Part shown: positions 24,659 through 34,830 of the stretch, piece after piece | Layout: each line of letters begins with the position of its first letter | How positions within the stretch are numbered: the stretch's first letter is position 1 | Origin: a virus | Lineage: Duplodnaviria; Heunggongvirae; Uroviricota; Caudoviricetes | Length of the DNA: 36,469 nt | IMG/VR virus record: IMGVR_UViG_2724679138_000003 | Strand: one strand, 5' to 3' | Notes under the pieces: generated by a model | Told to the model about the DNA's origin: nothing | The model's database searches: none | The model's input: only the letters and a program-made list of their open reading frames with translations | Position numbers and translations under genes: made by a program

Positions 24659-24814
24659 TTACTCCTCAGGTTCGTAAGCTGTGAAGACAGCGACCTCCGT
24701 CTGGCCGGTTCGGATTCGTACCTCGCAAAGGTCTTTCCTCGTTACCAGTGCCGTCACTATGACGGTTAAACAGATGACGATCAGGGCGATTAACATCGCC
24801 TTTTGCTGCTTCAT
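24659..24814 (-). CDS. hokD: Hok/Gef-family type I toxin (HokD/RelF-like)
   Basis: 51 aa, MKQQKAMLIALIVICLTVIVTALVTRKDLCEVRIRTGQTEVAVFTAYEPEE: N-terminal TM helix and conserved Hok C-terminus; matches K-12 HokD as recalled. Confidence 0.85.
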   Translation of the reverse strand: MKQQKAMLIALIVICLTVIVTALVTRKDLCEVRIRTGQTEVAVFTAYEPEE

Positions 24815-25279
24815 AGCCTGCTTCTCCTTGCCTTTCGGCACGTAAGAGGCTAACCTACATGTGTCTAGCATGAAATTGGCCTCAGATTAATGTTAAGCGT
24901 CTTGCAGGACGCGTAATGTTAACTGGGGCTTTTCTCTATCTGCCGTTGGTGTTCATGCCCGAGGCAGATAGCCTCAAGCACCCGCAGTCATTCTACTTAA
25001 CTACCGTTACCTCGCCAATGTGAAATCAGTCAGAAAGGCGATCCATAAGAACAATAGCAAGACAATAAATCGCCATTACAGCCGTAATAGCCAGCGCACA
25101 TTTGAGAACCAGCACCACAACCTCCTGTATTGGACGTACACCAGTCCTGATGAATATGAGGCTGTCTCGTCAGTGATTCAATACAACTATTGGGTATAGT
25201 TTCTCTGATTTTTTCTGTGGAAATGGGGCTCAACCACTAGTCATTTAATACGCAAAGTCCGACACAAGCTAACCTTCTA

Positions 25280-26885: not shown

Positions 26886-27518
26886 TTATCGACGCTCATT
26901 TTCAGAATATTCAGTCACTTTAGATAAACGCTTACATTCCACAAAAAAGCTTTCTTCACCTTTAGTAACTTTTAAATCAGGAGTTTTATTTAATGCTGTT
27001 TCTGGAATAAATTCTACTCTATAACCATTGCGCGCATACATAATCGCAACAACTAATTCAAACAATGTTGAATCAGGTTGATTTATTTTACCGTTAAGAA
27101 ATTCCGAAAGTTTTTCATCAATCCCAACAATTTTTTTTGCAAGCTCAATATGTCTTCCAACAGCCGCAAAAAAGGGAAATACTCGGGCTGATTGCGCTAA
27201 CTCGCTAACTAAAGGCCGTTCATGTAAGCATTCTACAAGAAAAAGATACCATGCAACCCAATCCTCATGAAATGCCACCCTATTTTTTGGCTCTTCCATA
27301 CTCTTCATTGCTTGGTCAAAATTCTTATAGGTGTTATCTTCCTGTTCTCTGAAGTACTTGACTACATTTTTTTTGCGAGTCTCCCAAGTATCCTTTTCCA
27401 GATAAGATAAAAACCAGTCCAATGCAATTTTCGTATGATGATGCCAGGGACTGGTATCCGTTGCTGCAAAAATCTCTTGTAGTTCTTTTGAATATTCCAA
27501 TGTCTGTGTGTTAGCCAT
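26886..27518 (-). CDS. Island ORF A (210 aa), unknown function with C-terminal PD-(D/E)xK-like motif
   Basis: ATG 27518 with GAGG 6 nt upstream; C-terminal ...LFELVVAIMYARNGYRVEFIPETALNKTPDLKVTKGEESFFVECKRL has helix-E, PD, and hydrophobic-ExK spacing typical of the restriction-endonuclease fold. Confidence 0.6.
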   Translation of the reverse strand: MANTQTLEYSKELQEIFAATDTSPWHHHTKIALDWFLSYLEKDTWETRKKNVVKYFREQEDNTYKNFDQAMKSMEEPKNRVAFHEDWVAWYLFLVECLHERPLVSELAQSARVFPFFAAVGRHIELAKKIVGIDEKLSEFLNGKINQPDSTLFELVVAIMYARNGYRVEFIPETALNKTPDLKVTKGEESFFVECKRLSKVTEYSENERR

Positions 27519-27889: not shown

Positions 27890-28291
27890 TTATCCCTGAT
27901 AAAATGCCAGTATGCGCTGCATAACTTCACTCATCCGGCACTCGCGACAGATTATGTTTAGGCGACTGTCGTAGCGACGTATTTCTCCATCAGGTAACGA
28001 CCAGATAAGGTCCGGATCAACCACAGCTGTTTTCTTCACCTTTGCCCTCGATAGTTTTTTGCGGGCGTTTTGCCAGTCCTTACGCGCCTGTTCAGACGGG
28101 AATAACCCGTAGCCGGAGTTGTATACATCGCCACTGGCTACCAGCTCTCTGGCAAGAACGCTCATCAGATATCTAGTCGCACCTGTTTTAGCTTCCAGTT
28201 GCCGTAACGTCTCACGACCACTCTGGCGCACGAGTTCCACCACCTGCCCTTTAATTTTTTCCCGCTCTTCTTGTGTAAAAACTTTTGCCAC
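27890..28291 (-). CDS. Hypothetical protein downstream of replication initiator (133 aa)
   Basis: GTG start at 28291 with GGGGG upstream; occupies the slot where lambda P (helicase loader) would sit but is far too small to be P or DnaC. Confidence 0.45.
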   Translation of the reverse strand: MAKVFTQEEREKIKGQVVELVRQSGRETLRQLEAKTGATRYLMSVLARELVASGDVYNSGYGLFPSEQARKDWQNARKKLSRAKVKKTAVVDPDLIWSLPDGEIRRYDSRLNIICRECRMSEVMQRILAFYQG

Positions 28292-28331
28292 AAGTCCCCC
28301 TTAAAATTACCTCATGACCTGAAATCAAAAC

Positions 28332-29297
28332 TTATCCTCTGAAACCAGGCGGAATTTCTGTATCCGGTTCAGAAATATGATTCACACAACGCTGTACAGG
28401 TGAACGTCCCAGGCGGATGACCAGTTCGTCCCATTTTTCGCGGAGTTTTGACGGGCTCATGATGTTTTTTACCCAGAATGGATCCCGCTGTACCCGACCA
28501 AACATTTCGCAAATTTGTCTGTGGCTTCTGCCATCCAGCATCCGCATTGTGCGCACGTCATTGGCCCAGGCTGTCCAGTTAGGCTCTTTTGGTCGCATGA
28601 TCTCTCCATCGTCGCTGGCAGCCTGTTCGTAAAGGTTCACGATCCGCCCCCAAATCCACTGCGCACACGCCAAATCCTCCCTGCTACCCCACTGGCGTTT
28701 TTTCACACTAAACACAACCGCGTCGGGGTTCCGAGTTAAAAAATCCTGTTCAGTCGTCTGCGGGTCCGGTTGCGAAGCTTCCGGACGAAAAGTGTTTTTA
28801 TTCTCTGTAGTAATCTCTGTTGTATTCTCTGTAAGATCATCAGGCCATTTTGACCCGATGACATTGGGTCGTTTTGAACCAATGGAGCGTTTCATTTTGA
28901 CCTCTTCCATCGTGTCATTTTGACCTGATGGAGCGGCGCATTTTGAACCGATGGATTCGTTCAATTTGCCACCATCTAAAAGCTCGCTCCCATAGTTGAT
29001 CGTGTAGAAATTGGTCATATCGCGCTTTGATTTATTGAGCTTTTCACAACGCAAAAGCCCCAGCGTTTTCAGACTTGCAAACGCGCGCTTTAACGTTGAC
29101 TCTGACCAGAATGGGAACTGTTCCAGCCATTGTTCCGTTGTGTTGTAAATCCAGCGAACACCATCACATTCCATGCCGGAATTGGTATCTCTCAACCAGT
29201 AATGCAACTGCTGCAACACAATGGCTTCATTTAAGCCAATCTTCATCGCAAGCTGTGTGTTTATAACCAGTGGGCGTTCAGCAAAAAGAAGGCTCAT
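28332..29297 (-). CDS. Replication initiator protein (lambda O-like) with internal origin iterons
   Basis: N-terminal helix-turn-helix-like region; six ~23-bp direct repeats inside the coding sequence, as in ori-lambda within gene O. Start is uncertain (ATG 29297 or TTG 29351). Confidence 0.7.
   Translation of the reverse strand: MSLLFAERPLVINTQLAMKIGLNEAIVLQQLHYWLRDTNSGMECDGVRWIYNTTEQWLEQFPFWSESTLKRAFASLKTLGLLRCEKLNKSKRDMTNFYTINYGSELLDGGKLNESIGSKCAAPSGQNDTMEEVKMKRSIGSKRPNVIGSKWPDDLTENTTEITTENKNTFRPEASQPDPQTTEQDFLTRNPDAVVFSVKKRQWGSREDLACAQWIWGRIVNLYEQAASDDGEIMRPKEPNWTAWANDVRTMRMLDGRSHRQICEMFGRVQRDPFWVKNIMSPSKLREKWDELVIRLGRSPVQRCVNHISEPDTEIPPGFRG
28846..28984. repeat. Origin of replication iterons: six tandem ~23-bp repeats (consensus CATTTTGACC-N-GATGGAGCG)
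   Basis: Repeat cores at 28846, 28870, 28893, 28916, 28939 and 28962 (CATTTTGACC / CGTTTTGAACC / CAATTTGCC), adjoined by TTCTCTGT repeats at 28801-28835. Confidence 0.65.
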
Positions 29298-29799
29298 AAT
29301 TCCATCCAGCTTTTTGTTGGTATTGCTGTCGATACGCAAGTTTGAAAGCAATTGCTTTTTCTATAAGTTCGTCAGTTTCACGATCCACTACGGCAGGATC
29401 AGCAAAAAGCAGTCCGGACTCCACCACATCGCCATATTCTTTGTTTAACCCGGCGATCATGTACGTGATGCTTTTTCCGTCACTAATTTCACGATACAAC
29501 CTGAAATCATTAATCCGGATAGCCTCCATAATTGCAGGCACTAGCGCCGTGAACTTTTCACGCTTATCCCTAGTGTCGATAGCCTTCCAGCGTTCGAATA
29601 TCTTCACTCGATTAACGCCAAGCGCTCGCTGATCAACCGCGCCACCTTCATCTGTGACACGCTGAACATCGATGTTCGGGCGCTCTTTCAAAGCCCAGAA
29701 TGCTTCAGTGATTAATATCGTCGCCTGCTCCTGTGTCATTCCTGGTCGACATATCCAGGCATCCAGAGCCTCACGAGCCTGTTCAGGAGTGATTTTCAT
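29278..29799 (-). CDS. Early-region protein between Cro-like gene and replication initiator (possible CII/YdaT-like regulator)
   Basis: 173-aa ORF overlapping the DicC-like 3' end by 17 nt; function not recognizable from sequence. Confidence 0.45.
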   Translation of the reverse strand: MKITPEQAREALDAWICRPGMTQEQATILITEAFWALKERPNIDVQRVTDEGGAVDQRALGVNRVKIFERWKAIDTRDKREKFTALVPAIMEAIRINDFRLYREISDGKSITYMIAGLNKEYGDVVESGLLFADPAVVDRETDELIEKAIAFKLAYRQQYQQKAGWNYEPSFC

Positions 29800-31661: not shown

Positions 31662-31719
31662 TTTCTGGTGACGTTTGGCGGTATCAGTTTTACTCCGTGA
31701 CTGCTCTGCCGCCGTTTTT
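31662..31719 (+). ncRNA. dicF: DicF small regulatory RNA
   Basis: TTTCTGGTGACGTTTGGCGGTATCAGTTTTACTCCGTGACTGCTCTGCCGCCG followed by TTTTT; matches the K-12 DicF sequence as recalled (one mismatch at the 3' end); sits between ydfC-position gene and dicB. Confidence 0.8.
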
Positions 31720-32358: not shown

Positions 32359-34830
32359 ATGAGTAAAGTCTTTATTTGCGCCGCTATTCCTGACGAACTG
32401 GCAACAAGGGAAGAAGGCGCTGTGGCTGTAGCCACAGCCATTGAAGCTGGCGACGAACGCCGTGCTCGAGCAAAATTTCACTGGCAGTTCCTGGAACATT
32501 ATCCGGCTGCTCAGGACTGCGCTTATAAATTTATTGTCTGCGAGGATAAACCTGGCATACCCCGCCCTGCCCTCGATTCATGGGATGCTGAATATATGCA
32601 GGAAAACCGCTGGGATGAGGAGTCAGCTTCTTTTGTCCCGGTTGAGACTGAATCCGATCCGATGAACGTCACTTTTGACAAGCTGGCCCCTGAAGTACAG
32701 AACGCTGTCATGGTTAAGTTCGACACATGTGAAAACATCACCGTTGATATGGTTATTAGCGCACAGGAATTGTTGCAGGAAGACATGGCAACATTCGACG
32801 GACATATCGTTGAAGCGTTGATGAAAATGCCAGAAGTTAACGCCATGTATCCGGAGCTTAAGTTGCACGCCATTGGGTGGGTTAAGCATAAATGTATTCC
32901 TGGTGCTAAATGGCCCGAAATTCAGGCAGAGATGCGCATCTGGAAAAAACGTCGCGAAGGTGAACGCAAGGAAACCGGAAAATACACGTCTGTTGTTGAT
33001 CTCGCCCGCGCCAGAGCCAATCAACAGTACACTGAAAATTCAACAGGAAAAATCAGCCCGGTCATTGCTGCCATTCATCGCGAATACAAGCAGACATGGA
33101 AAACACTGGATGACGAACTGGCCTACGCTCTCTGGCCTGGTGATGTGGATGCCGGAAACATTGACGGCAGCATCCATCGCTGGGCAAAAAAAGAAGTTAT
33201 CGACAACGACCGCGAAGACTGGAAGCGTATCTCGGCATCAATGCGCAAACAGCCTGATGCCCTTCGCTACGACCGCCAAACTATTTTTGGCCTTGTCCGT
33301 GAGCGTCCGATCGACATTCACAAAGATCCCGTAGCACTGAACAAATATATCTGCGAATACCTGACGACAAAGGGCGTGTTTGAGAATGAAGAAACAGACC
33401 TGGGCACTGTTGATGTTCTCCAGTCATCAGAAACACAAACTGATGCAGTGGAAACTGAGGTATCTGATATCCCAAAAAATGAAACCGCGCCGGAAGCTGA
33501 ACCATCTGTAGAGCGTGAGGGGCCGTTCTATTTCCTCTTCGCAGATAAGGACGGAGAAAAATACGGTCGCGCAAACAAACTTTCTGGTCTGGATAAGGCA
33601 CTGGCTGCTGGCGCCACTGAAATCACAAAAGAAGAATATTTTGCCCGAAAAAATGGCACATACACGGGCTTACCGCAAAATGTAGATACCGCTGAAGATT
33701 CAGAACAACCAGAGCCGATAAAAGTTACCGCTGACGAAGTAAACAAAATTATGCAGGCAGCCAATATCAGCCAGCCTGACGCCGATAAGTTGCTTGCTGC
33801 ATCACATGGTGAATTTGTTGAAGGGATTAGTGACCCGAATGATCCGAAATGGGTTAAGGGGATCCAGACCCGCGATTCTGTGAACCAGAACCAGCATGAA
33901 TCGGAACGGAACTACCAAAAAGCGGAACAAAACAGCCCAAATGCGTTACAAAACGAGCCAGAAACGAAACAGCCTGAACCAGTGGCGCAACAGGAAGTGG
34001 AAAAAGTCTGCACCGCCTGCGGTCAGACTGGCGGCGGCAACTGCCCTGATTGTGGCGCGGTGATGGGCGACGCAACATACCAAGAAACATTCGATGAAGA
34101 GTATCAGGTTGAAGTTCAGGAAGATGATCCGGAGGAAATGGAAGGCGCTGAACATCCACACAAGGAGAACACTGGCGGCAATCAGCATCACAATAGCGAT
34201 AATGAAACTGGCGAGACGGCAGATCACTCAATTAAGGTGAACGGTCATCACGAAATCACATCCACCAGCAGGACGTGTGACCATCTAATGATCGACCTTG
34301 AAACCATGGGAAAAAATCCTGATGCACCGATCATCTCAATAGGTGCAATATTTTTCGATCCGCAAACCGGAGATATAGGACCGGAATTTAGTAAGACTAT
34401 CGATCTGGAAACTGCTGGCGGAGTCATTGATCGGGACACCATTAAATGGTGGCTTAAGCAATCACGCGAAGCACAATCTGCCATTATGACCGATGAAATC
34501 CCGTTAGATGATGCACTGTTACAATTGCGGGAATTTATCGACGAAAACTCCGGTGAATTATTTGTTCAGGTTTGGGGAAATGGAGCCAACTTCGACAACA
34601 CGATTTTGCGCCGTTCATACGAACGGCAGGGGATCCCCTGCCCGTGGCGTTACTACAACGATCGCGATGTACGCACAATCGTTGAGCTGGGGAAAGCCAT
34701 AGATTTCGATGCCAGAACGGCTATTCCATTCGAAGGTGAGCGCCATAATGCACTTGATGACGCCCGTTACCAGGCAAAATACGTTTCAGTTATCTGGCAA
34801 AAACTGATCCCGAGTCAGGCTGATTCTTAA
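32359..34830 (+). CDS. Exodeoxyribonuclease VIII-like protein with C-terminal DnaQ-like (DEDDh) 3'-5' exonuclease domain
   Basis: 823 aa; C-terminal HLMIDLETMG...WGNGANFDNTIL...HNALDDARY (DEDDh motifs); central CTACGQTGGGNCPDCG zinc-ribbon; acidic linker; position next to xis-int as for prophage exoVIII genes. Confidence 0.75.
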   Translation: MSKVFICAAIPDELATREEGAVAVATAIEAGDERRARAKFHWQFLEHYPAAQDCAYKFIVCEDKPGIPRPALDSWDAEYMQENRWDEESASFVPVETESDPMNVTFDKLAPEVQNAVMVKFDTCENITVDMVISAQELLQEDMATFDGHIVEALMKMPEVNAMYPELKLHAIGWVKHKCIPGAKWPEIQAEMRIWKKRREGERKETGKYTSVVDLARARANQQYTENSTGKISPVIAAIHREYKQTWKTLDDELAYALWPGDVDAGNIDGSIHRWAKKEVIDNDREDWKRISASMRKQPDALRYDRQTIFGLVRERPIDIHKDPVALNKYICEYLTTKGVFENEETDLGTVDVLQSSETQTDAVETEVSDIPKNETAPEAEPSVEREGPFYFLFADKDGEKYGRANKLSGLDKALAAGATEITKEEYFARKNGTYTGLPQNVDTAEDSEQPEPIKVTADEVNKIMQAANISQPDADKLLAASHGEFVEGISDPNDPKWVKGIQTRDSVNQNQHESERNYQKAEQNSPNALQNEPETKQPEPVAQQEVEKVCTACGQTGGGNCPDCGAVMGDATYQETFDEEYQVEVQEDDPEEMEGAEHPHKENTGGNQHHNSDNETGETADHSIKVNGHHEITSTSRTCDHLMIDLETMGKNPDAPIISIGAIFFDPQTGDIGPEFSKTIDLETAGGVIDRDTIKWWLKQSREAQSAIMTDEIPLDDALLQLREFIDENSGELFVQVWGNGANFDNTILRRSYERQGIPCPWRYYNDRDVRTIVELGKAIDFDARTAIPFEGERHNALDDARYQAKYVSVIWQKLIPSQADS

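Follow-up and report, generated by a model that had tools for sequence, protein, structure and literature searches.

What do the tandem repeats do that lie inside the coding sequence of a putative phage replication initiator? The question arises from the 36,469-nt stretch of phage DNA analyzed here at its full length (the window), for which an earlier note had proposed that six repeats of about 23 bp are origin iterons embedded in an O-like gene. As judged from the sequence, the region 28764-28976 is very probably the replication origin of a lambdoid E. coli prophage of the Qin or DicA-DicC immunity type, placed midway along its own initiator gene in the part that encodes the linker.

Table 1. 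Features of the initiator gene and of the putative origin within it (positions in the window)
Feature	Position	Strand	Basis or sequence
O-like replication initiator gene, 321 aa	28332..29297	-	ATG at 29297, stop at 28332-28334
N-terminal winged-helix domain, aa 1-107, presumed iteron binder	28977..29297	-	AlphaFold2, Foldseek
Predicted recognition helix, aa 66-79	29061..29102	-	helix H66-79 in the AlphaFold2 model
Iteron 1, degenerate	28954..28976	-	sense GATGGTGGCAAATTGAACGAATC
Iteron 2	28931..28953	-	sense CATCGGTTCAAAATGCGCCGCTC
Iteron 3	28908..28930	-	sense CATCAGGTCAAAATGACACGATG
Iteron 4	28885..28907	-	sense GAAGAGGTCAAAATGAAACGCTC
Iteron 5	28862..28884	-	sense CATTGGTTCAAAACGACCCAATG
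Iteron 6, best dyad, closest to the 12-mers	28838..28860	-	sense CATCGGGTCAAAATGGCCTGATG
Three 12-mers and A-run, proposed DNA-unwinding element	28790..28834	-	Tandem Repeats Finder, duplex stability, codon use
Palindrome, 8/10 complementary	28764..28786		sequence; sense GTCCGGAAGC-TTC-GCAACCGGAC
Lambda-O-type C-terminal domain, about aa 183-296	28410..28751	-	BLASTP, helical in the model
C-terminal tail VQRCVNHISEPDTEIPPGFRG, copy of the E. coli DnaT C-terminus	28335..28397	-	phmmer, NCBIfam

The listed open reading frame extends the initiator to a TTG at 29351; the ATG was chosen as the start, the phage homologues being annotated from ATG. The minus-strand product matches PHROG 391 ("replication initiation O-like") with an E-value of 2e-92, which bears out the placing of the repeats in an O-like coding sequence. 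The gene is 99% identical to that of phage mEp460_ev081, annotated from the same ATG. In the Pfam search at E<=0.01, the protein matched neither Phage_rep_O nor RepA_N (PF06970) nor any other model, and Pfam and NCBIfam together returned no family for it except a 20-residue DnaT match in the tail. In E. coli genomes, the PGAP pipeline names the gene "hypothetical protein" or "phage O protein family".

The AlphaFold2 model of the initiator, built on 108 sequences, divides the protein into four parts. The N-domain is modeled confidently (pLDDT 73-92), with a helix-turn-helix and a beta wing after helix 66-79; Ser67 (codon 29097-29099) stands at the start of this predicted recognition helix. Residues 112-177 are disordered (pLDDT below 50), and they are exactly the part encoded by the iterons, the 12-mers and the palindrome. 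The C-domain is helical and followed by a disordered tail. In the Foldseek search of the PDB, the top matches were all winged-helix DNA binders, the best being the N-terminal domains of RepA_N initiators (4pql, 4pt7 and 5kbj), with weak statistics (E 0.046 and TM 0.54 for 4pql). The C-domain is 34% identical to lambda O over 148 aa (BLASTP, E 1e-27). Together with the N-domain model, this homology agrees with the earlier call of a DNA-binding initiator, as a prediction. The N-domain had no BLASTP similarity to the N-domain of lambda O, and the hhalign comparison of the N-domain alignment gave a probability of 0.1%; the reading as a diverged lambda O N-domain was therefore dropped. The full HMMER scan found 10,269 cluster representatives of the N-domain family at E<=1e-3. 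The domain belongs to a very large, uncurated winged-helix family other than that of lambda O, and by membership the initiator is a chimera of a non-lambda N-domain with its origin, a lambda-O-type C-domain and a DnaT tail.

The six 23-nt repeats occupy 28838-28976 (gene nt 322-460), directly 3' of the part encoding the winged helix and before the C-domain, in the stretch encoding the disordered linker. All six were found where the earlier note had placed their plus-strand cores: CATTTTGACC at 28846, 28893 and 28916, CGTTTTGAAC at 28870, CATTTTGAAC at 28939 and CAATTTGCCA at 28962, the last being the weakest of the six with 3 mismatches. The core-to-core spacings are 24, 23, 23, 23 and 23 nt. 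Each iteron is a dyad with the consensus CATCGGGTCAAAATGACCCGATG, which can be written as the 23-bp dyad CATCGGGTCA-AAA-TGACCCGATG. Tandem Repeats Finder reported arrays of period 23 at 28872-28955 and of period 12 at 28802-28833; the repeat search gave families spaced 23 nt and three 12-mers at 28799-28834, so that the neighboring second repeat set of the earlier note is present as well. The range that the note had given, 28801-28984, contains the array, while the element reaches a little further, to the palindrome; the gene is read from the minus strand, and so are the repeats in their sense orientation.

The period-23 self-match over 92 nt amounts to 57/92 at 28861, and nowhere else in the 36-kb window does period 23 score above 38. 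When blocks of the sequence were shuffled 200 times, the highest value at any period from 9 to 45 and any position was 44.2 on average (sd 1.3) and never exceeded 49. No chance match is expected to the full 23-mer dyad consensus. The bare 10-mer core is not rare, with 12 occurrences in the window against 6.9 expected, and the significance of the array rests therefore on clustering and phasing. Because 23 is not divisible by 3, the core passes through all three reading frames (IGSK, SGQND and EVKMK), which makes the iterons DNA elements and not a peptide repeat. Tandem Repeats Finder and the periodicity scan revealed no second array of similar strength in the early region of the window. A period-21 signal near 33881 lies in an exonuclease open reading frame; it resembles a protein-level low-complexity stretch and is unrelated to the iterons.

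Next to iteron 6 are the three 12-mers, TTACAGAGAATA, CAACAGAGATTA and CTACAGAGAATA (sense, 28834-28799, gene nt 464-499), followed by the A-run AAAAACAC. The repeated unit is ACAGAGAnTAC. In the nearest-neighbor profile, 28795-28835 is the least stable 40-nt duplex within 28200-29500 and lies in the 99th percentile of the 36-kb window. Codon use was compared in 29 distinct loci, with the repeat defined from the encoded peptide, tandem (T/S/P)-E-x-(T/S). The Glu codon of the repeat was GAG in 77 of 77 cases against 264 of 570 (46%) elsewhere in the genes (Fisher p = 6e-24), and the first Thr codon was ACA in all 67 cases as compared to 23% elsewhere. The unit ACAGAGA(A/T/C)TAC is the same whether the host is AT-rich or GC-rich and whichever iteron class the locus has, and the 12-mers are fixed at synonymous sites across phyla, in E. 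coli, Staphylococcus and Thermomicrobiales. A reading of the 12-mers as primase sites (CTG on the complementary strand) was considered and set aside: the trinucleotide preferences of primase differ between E. coli and Firmicutes, and the 12-mer is the same in both. That the 12-mer has been conserved in different phyla, although this limits the choice of codons, suggests sequence-specific recognition of the "AT-rich region" in origins of this class. The 12-mers are proposed to be the unwinding element of the origin. The initiator may contact them as single-stranded DNA, a contact of this kind being reported between lambda O and the AT-rich region of its origin (PMC7466680).

Beyond the 12-mers and the A-run, at gene nt 512-534, lies the palindrome. 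In about 20 enterobacterial relatives, it is complementary at 9/10 positions with the pattern GTCMGGTTGC-NNN-GCAACCMGAC, and only 2 of 290 shuffles reached this value. The compensatory changes in the relatives, G:C to C:G or T:A, are not silent in the protein (Ala/Gln, Ser/Lys, Pro/Glu). In ori-lambda, too, a palindrome lies past the AT-rich tract, and one is present at the equivalent place in the lambda O sequence.

The ori-lambda iterons lie within gene O (PMC7466680); the four of them, at O nt 349-433, just past the N-domain, are followed by the AT-rich tract, which is the stability minimum of lambda O in the nearest-neighbor profile, and last by the palindrome. The element of the window resembles this origin in its dyad iterons with an A-tract center, located inside the initiator gene between N- and C-domains, in the order of iterons, low-stability purine-rich tract and palindrome, with the tract on the promoter-distal side of the iterons, as well as in the cro-cII-O operon setting and the homologous C-domain. 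Six iterons are also found in the origin of Stx phages. Unlike lambda, the window has an N-domain without detectable similarity to that of lambda O, iterons of 23 bp instead of 18-19 bp, conserved 12-mers instead of a generic AT-rich run, and no P gene downstream, the protein ending in a DnaT-like tail. The likeness to ori-lambda that the earlier note had drawn thus extends to the order of the elements and the C-domain, but not to the N-domain. Its claim of an intact replication module needs to be qualified, since a P- or DnaC-type loader gene is missing, the module being apparently of a loader-less type with a DnaT-like tail. Because of the other DNA-binding domain, the conserved 12-mer tract and the missing loader, apparently replaced by the tail, the module should not be classed with those of the lambda O/P type. 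The "replication protein O" of Stx2_14040-type Stx2 phages (L003) has the 12-mer array at the same place after intragenic repeats, 97.5% identical at the DNA level over 40 nt; it differs in its divergent N-domain, other iterons, a tail ending in DYGSTNFNW, and helicase and loader genes downstream.

Plasmid iterons act in negative control too. Cloned lambda ori regions inhibit incoming phage, according to two reports (PMC3349717, PMC4488673). Both observations would suit iterons that bind the encoded protein for regulation only, be it autorepression, copy control or handcuffing, or exclusion of related phages, with the origin located elsewhere. This is improbable given that the iterons invariably come with a low-stability tract and a palindrome, arranged as in the functional ori-lambda, and that the early region of the window has no comparable array which could serve instead.

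The preferred reading as an origin gains from the relatives. Homologous loci were collected by scanning genome contigs, one genome per species, and aligned; the scan of viral contigs had given identical N-domains only and was uninformative for covariation. N-domain homologues were found in Enterobacterales, Pseudomonas, Acinetobacter, Comamonas, Hydrogenimonas, Staphylococcus, lactobacilli, Bacillus, Thermomicrobiales and others. The homologous initiators do have repeats, one of the two points on which the earlier note had staked its call: of the 84 loci, which range from Enterobacterales to Staphylococcus and Thermomicrobiales, about 57 have 3-7 dyad repeats spaced 22-24 nt, which begin at gene nt of about 320-350, i.e., at the equivalent position, and co-evolve with the protein. 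In most loci, the periodicity immediately 3' of the N-domain peaks at 23 nt, and in Firmicutes at 22-24 nt. A Bacillus/Neobacillus subgroup showed no clear array at the corresponding gene position, and the arrangement is hence not universal. The half-site across the loci is (C/G)AT-n3-G-N-CAA around an A/T center, with lineage cores GGTCAAAATGACC in E. coli and Staphylococcus, GGGCAAATTGCCC in Pantoea and Pseudomonas, GGTGCAAATTGCACC in Comamonas, Acinetobacter and Hydrogenimonas, GGACAATTTGTCC in Mixta and GGATCAAAATGATCC in Limosilactobacillus.

For 54 loci, classed by the base directly 5' of the invariant CAA (half-site position -4), the most informative alignment column of the N-domain was that of Ser67, in the motif FPFWSE-S-TLKR. 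The residue is Ser or Ala in 23 of the 25 loci with T at this position (Met and Pro in the remaining two), Asp in all 18 with G, Lys or Arg in all seven with A, and Asn or His in all four with C. On a neighbor-joining tree made from the rest of the N-domain, the base class has switched 11 times or more. The joint character of base and residue takes 13 steps on the same tree, the same as the residue alone, so that each base change coincides with a residue change. Nearly identical Pantoea proteins illustrate the switch, SSDTVKR occurring with GGGCAA and SEKTVKR with GGACAA. This covariation is the strongest available support for the N-domain as the predicted reader of the iterons. The rule could be used to predict replication incompatibility or cross-activation between co-resident prophages.

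In the proposed mechanism, dimers of the winged-helix N-domain would bind the six dyad iterons, and in each half-site residue 67, at the start of the recognition helix, would read the base that directly precedes the invariant CAA on its 5' side. The nucleoprotein complex would then destabilize the adjoining purine-rich tract of three 12-mers, with the palindrome as a boundary, and the host DnaB helicase would be brought in via the C-terminal part of the initiator. The literature search found no report of binding, unwinding, origin activity or mechanism for this initiator family or for the 12-mer.

In RepA_N plasmids of the pSK41 type, a winged-helix N-terminal domain binds repeats located centrally in its own gene, and the C-terminal domain is host-specific (PMC5703833). 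The window shares with these replicons the central position of the origin repeats in the initiator gene, and their N-terminal domain structures are among the best fold matches. The resemblance is at the fold level only and weak (E 0.05, TM 0.54), with no Pfam RepA_N match; moreover, the window is of phage origin, and its C-terminal domain is lambda-O-like, unlike the DnaD-like, DnaG-binding domain of RepA_N proteins. The RepA_N origin repeats encode a dispensable linker; the linker of the window is predicted to be disordered and is shortened by 31 aa in frame in natural variants. By analogy, the element may function like both ori-lambda and the RepA_N plasmid origins.

These variants are 290 aa long (P0016-P0021) and have an exact 93-nt deletion between iteron 2 and iteron 6, the type of product expected from recombination between repeats. 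Among 40 close gene variants, the share of variable sites was 6.5% in the iterons and 4.2% in the 12-mers, as compared to 33% over the remaining linker and 23% for the C-domain. Such low variability fits constraint at the DNA level, inheritance of the N-domain and the origin as one specificity module, or both; for the iteron region, linkage to the N-domain may account for part of it, since the 40 variants were chosen for identical N-domains.

The initiator gene was found in 1748 of 5426 complete E. coli genomes, i.e., in about a third, and is 97-99% identical in the isolated phages mEp460_ev081, HannyBb and PhiR42_1. It belongs to an operon of cro-like, cII(YdaT)-like and O-like genes with the repressor gene opposite. 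The immunity genes of the prophage are of the Qin-like DicA/DicC type, with the DicF RNA and a hok/sok system nearby; Rfam gave no RNA family within the origin region. Identifying the origin and the initiator helps to annotate prophages better and to predict which of them are able to replicate. The element might instead be an inactive relic of the right architecture in a defective prophage, many E. coli lambdoid prophages being cryptic. A near-identical prophage in strain SCU-115 has a frameshifted integrase, the 93-nt deletions occur naturally, and the loader gene is absent. The relic is nonetheless quite improbable, considering the intact open reading frame with its close counterparts in isolated phages, the presence of all origin elements and the recurrence of loader-less modules with a DnaT-like tail in many phages. 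An alternative in which the repeats matter in the protein alone, as a repetitive or low-complexity linker peptide, and do nothing as DNA can be set aside as extremely improbable: the region does encode a disordered linker and the in-frame 12-mers do give a TENT/TEIT/TENK peptide repeat, but the period is 23 nt with the core read in three frames, the 12-mers keep the same Glu and Thr codons from phylum to phylum regardless of how GC-rich the host is, the palindrome has been maintained by compensatory substitutions that change amino acids, and the iteron base covaries with a residue of another domain.

For the origin as proposed, the loading of the helicase has to be considered. The initiator ends in the 21 residues VQRCVNHISEPDTEIPPGFRG, which correspond to the C-terminal end of E. 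coli DnaT, RDVNTVSEPDSQIPPGFRG, and the last 20 are nearly identical (SEPDTEIPPGFRG vs SEPDSQIPPGFRG). The phmmer search of the tail against the PDB found the DnaT chains 2ru8, 6aep and 9zbt. The NCBIfam DnaT equivalog was matched at model positions 160-179 only, with 16.3 bits against a cut-off of 201, the full-length match having failed. The initiator has only the tail in common with DnaT and lacks its N-terminal domain and its ssDNA-binding C-terminal domain. No P-like or DnaC-like loader gene was revealed downstream by open reading frames, Pfam or PHROG, the next gene being DUF977. With no phage loader, the helicase would probably be loaded via the DnaT-like tail and the host, in a DnaT-dependent or DnaC-dependent way.

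Among the homologous loci, the ending D-x-x-(I/V)-P-x-G-F-(R/K) is confined to Enterobacterales. Initiators with a different C-domain or a different N-domain carry it as well (L002, L005, L006 and L007). All ten tail-bearing loci sampled have just a small winged-helix, PerC or DUF977 protein downstream and no loader, and all ten tail-less loci sampled are followed directly by a gene for a lambda-P-type loader, an IstB/DnaC-type loader or a DnaB-type helicase. Other endings are associated with particular loaders: tails in HWNSPEAWENTL pair with lambda-P-type loaders, and those in SGFSEQDYGxTDCNW with DnaC-like loaders. The distribution suggests that the DnaT-like tail replaces the phage loader by plugging into a host partner of DnaT. 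The publications on DnaT that were consulted give no binding partner or settled role for its residues 154-179, and the way in which DnaT recruits DnaB/DnaC is stated to be unknown (PMC13377028). As a mimic that is mutually exclusive with phage loader genes, the tail offers a short peptide as a handle on this recruitment.

A far-reaching generalization, possible but doubtful at present, is that the whole family (more than 10,000 clusters at 50% identity, no Pfam model) follows one universal origin grammar. Its specificity would be set by a code of one residue and one base (Ser/Ala-T, Asp-G, Lys/Arg-A, Asn/His-C), the 12-mer would be a sequence-specific element for unwinding or helicase entry and not generic AT-rich DNA, and the enterobacterial members would have replaced the loader with a copy of the DnaT tail, starting replication via the host restart primosome or the DnaC machinery.

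The type of C-terminal tail carried by the initiator tracks the type of partner gene found downstream of it, as seen in the loci L088-L167, in the Stx2-phage O-type locus L003 and in L007 (phage Evi). Tails ending in ...HWNSPEAWENTL are paired with a lambda-P-type loader and those ending in ...SGFSEQDYGxTDCNW with an IstB/DnaC-like loader. A loader gene was absent beside the PxGFRG-tailed initiators in all of the sampled loci (10/10). In the remaining tail-less loci, the partner gene encodes a DnaB-type helicase. The tail of the window's own initiator, SEPDTEIPPGFRG, is near-identical to the C-terminus of the host primosomal protein DnaT, SEPDSQIPPGFRG. In RAST-annotated phage records, the whole gene is named 'Primosomal protein I' because of this DnaT-like tail. 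Phage Evi also has such a tail, in an initiator whose N-domain is unrelated.

The E. coli proteins P0016-P0021 are natural 290-aa initiator variants showing an exact in-frame deletion of 31 aa (93 nt) from iteron 2 to iteron 6, with two iterons remaining; recombination between iterons was presumably the source of this deletion. In the Bacillus/Neobacillus homolog subgroup (L128-L138, L145, L147, L152, L158-L160), a clear 22-24-nt array was not found after the N-domain. Their origin may lie elsewhere, or it may be so degenerate that the method used misses it. The neighboring ACAGAGAnTAC 12-mer was present in 2-5 copies per locus among the many loci compared. Conservation of its DNA sequence reaches from E. 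coli to Staphylococcus, Limosilactobacillus and Thermomicrobiales, and Stx-phage O genes whose iterons differ have it as well (2501-2540 in L003).

No Pfam model covers the initiator N-domain, although its family numbers over 10,000 clusters at 50% identity. In RefSeq E. coli genomes, the gene (28332-29297 in the window) is labelled 'hypothetical protein' or 'phage O protein family'. Two tandem copies of the N-domain occur in many of the family's distant members, which are 400-880 aa long (P0245, P0248, P0249, P0251 and others).

Features of the initiator gene and of other parts of the window
Feature	Position	Strand	Remark
sok antitoxin RNA	24809-24983	(-)	Rfam, 115 bits
210-aa ORF downstream of the DUF977 gene	26886-27518	(-)	sole match PHROG 37220 (unknown function)
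DnaT-like C-terminal tail of the initiator, final 21 residues	28335-28397	(-)	near copy of the host DnaT C-terminus
12-mer repeats	28799-28834
Deletion in P0016-P0021 relative to the window	28861-28953		iteron 2 to iteron 6
DicF RNA	31663-31714	(+)	Rfam, 72 bits
Period-21 self-similar stretch, in ORF 32359-34830	33864-33990	(+)	58/92 matches

The prophage belongs to the Qin/DicA-DicC type. The period-21 stretch codes for a Q/N/E/P-rich low-complexity segment of an exonuclease-like protein of 823 aa and has no relation to the origin. Strain SCU-115 has a near-identical prophage in which an 'ABC-three component system' occupies the position of the 210-aa ORF, so this position is a variable cargo slot.
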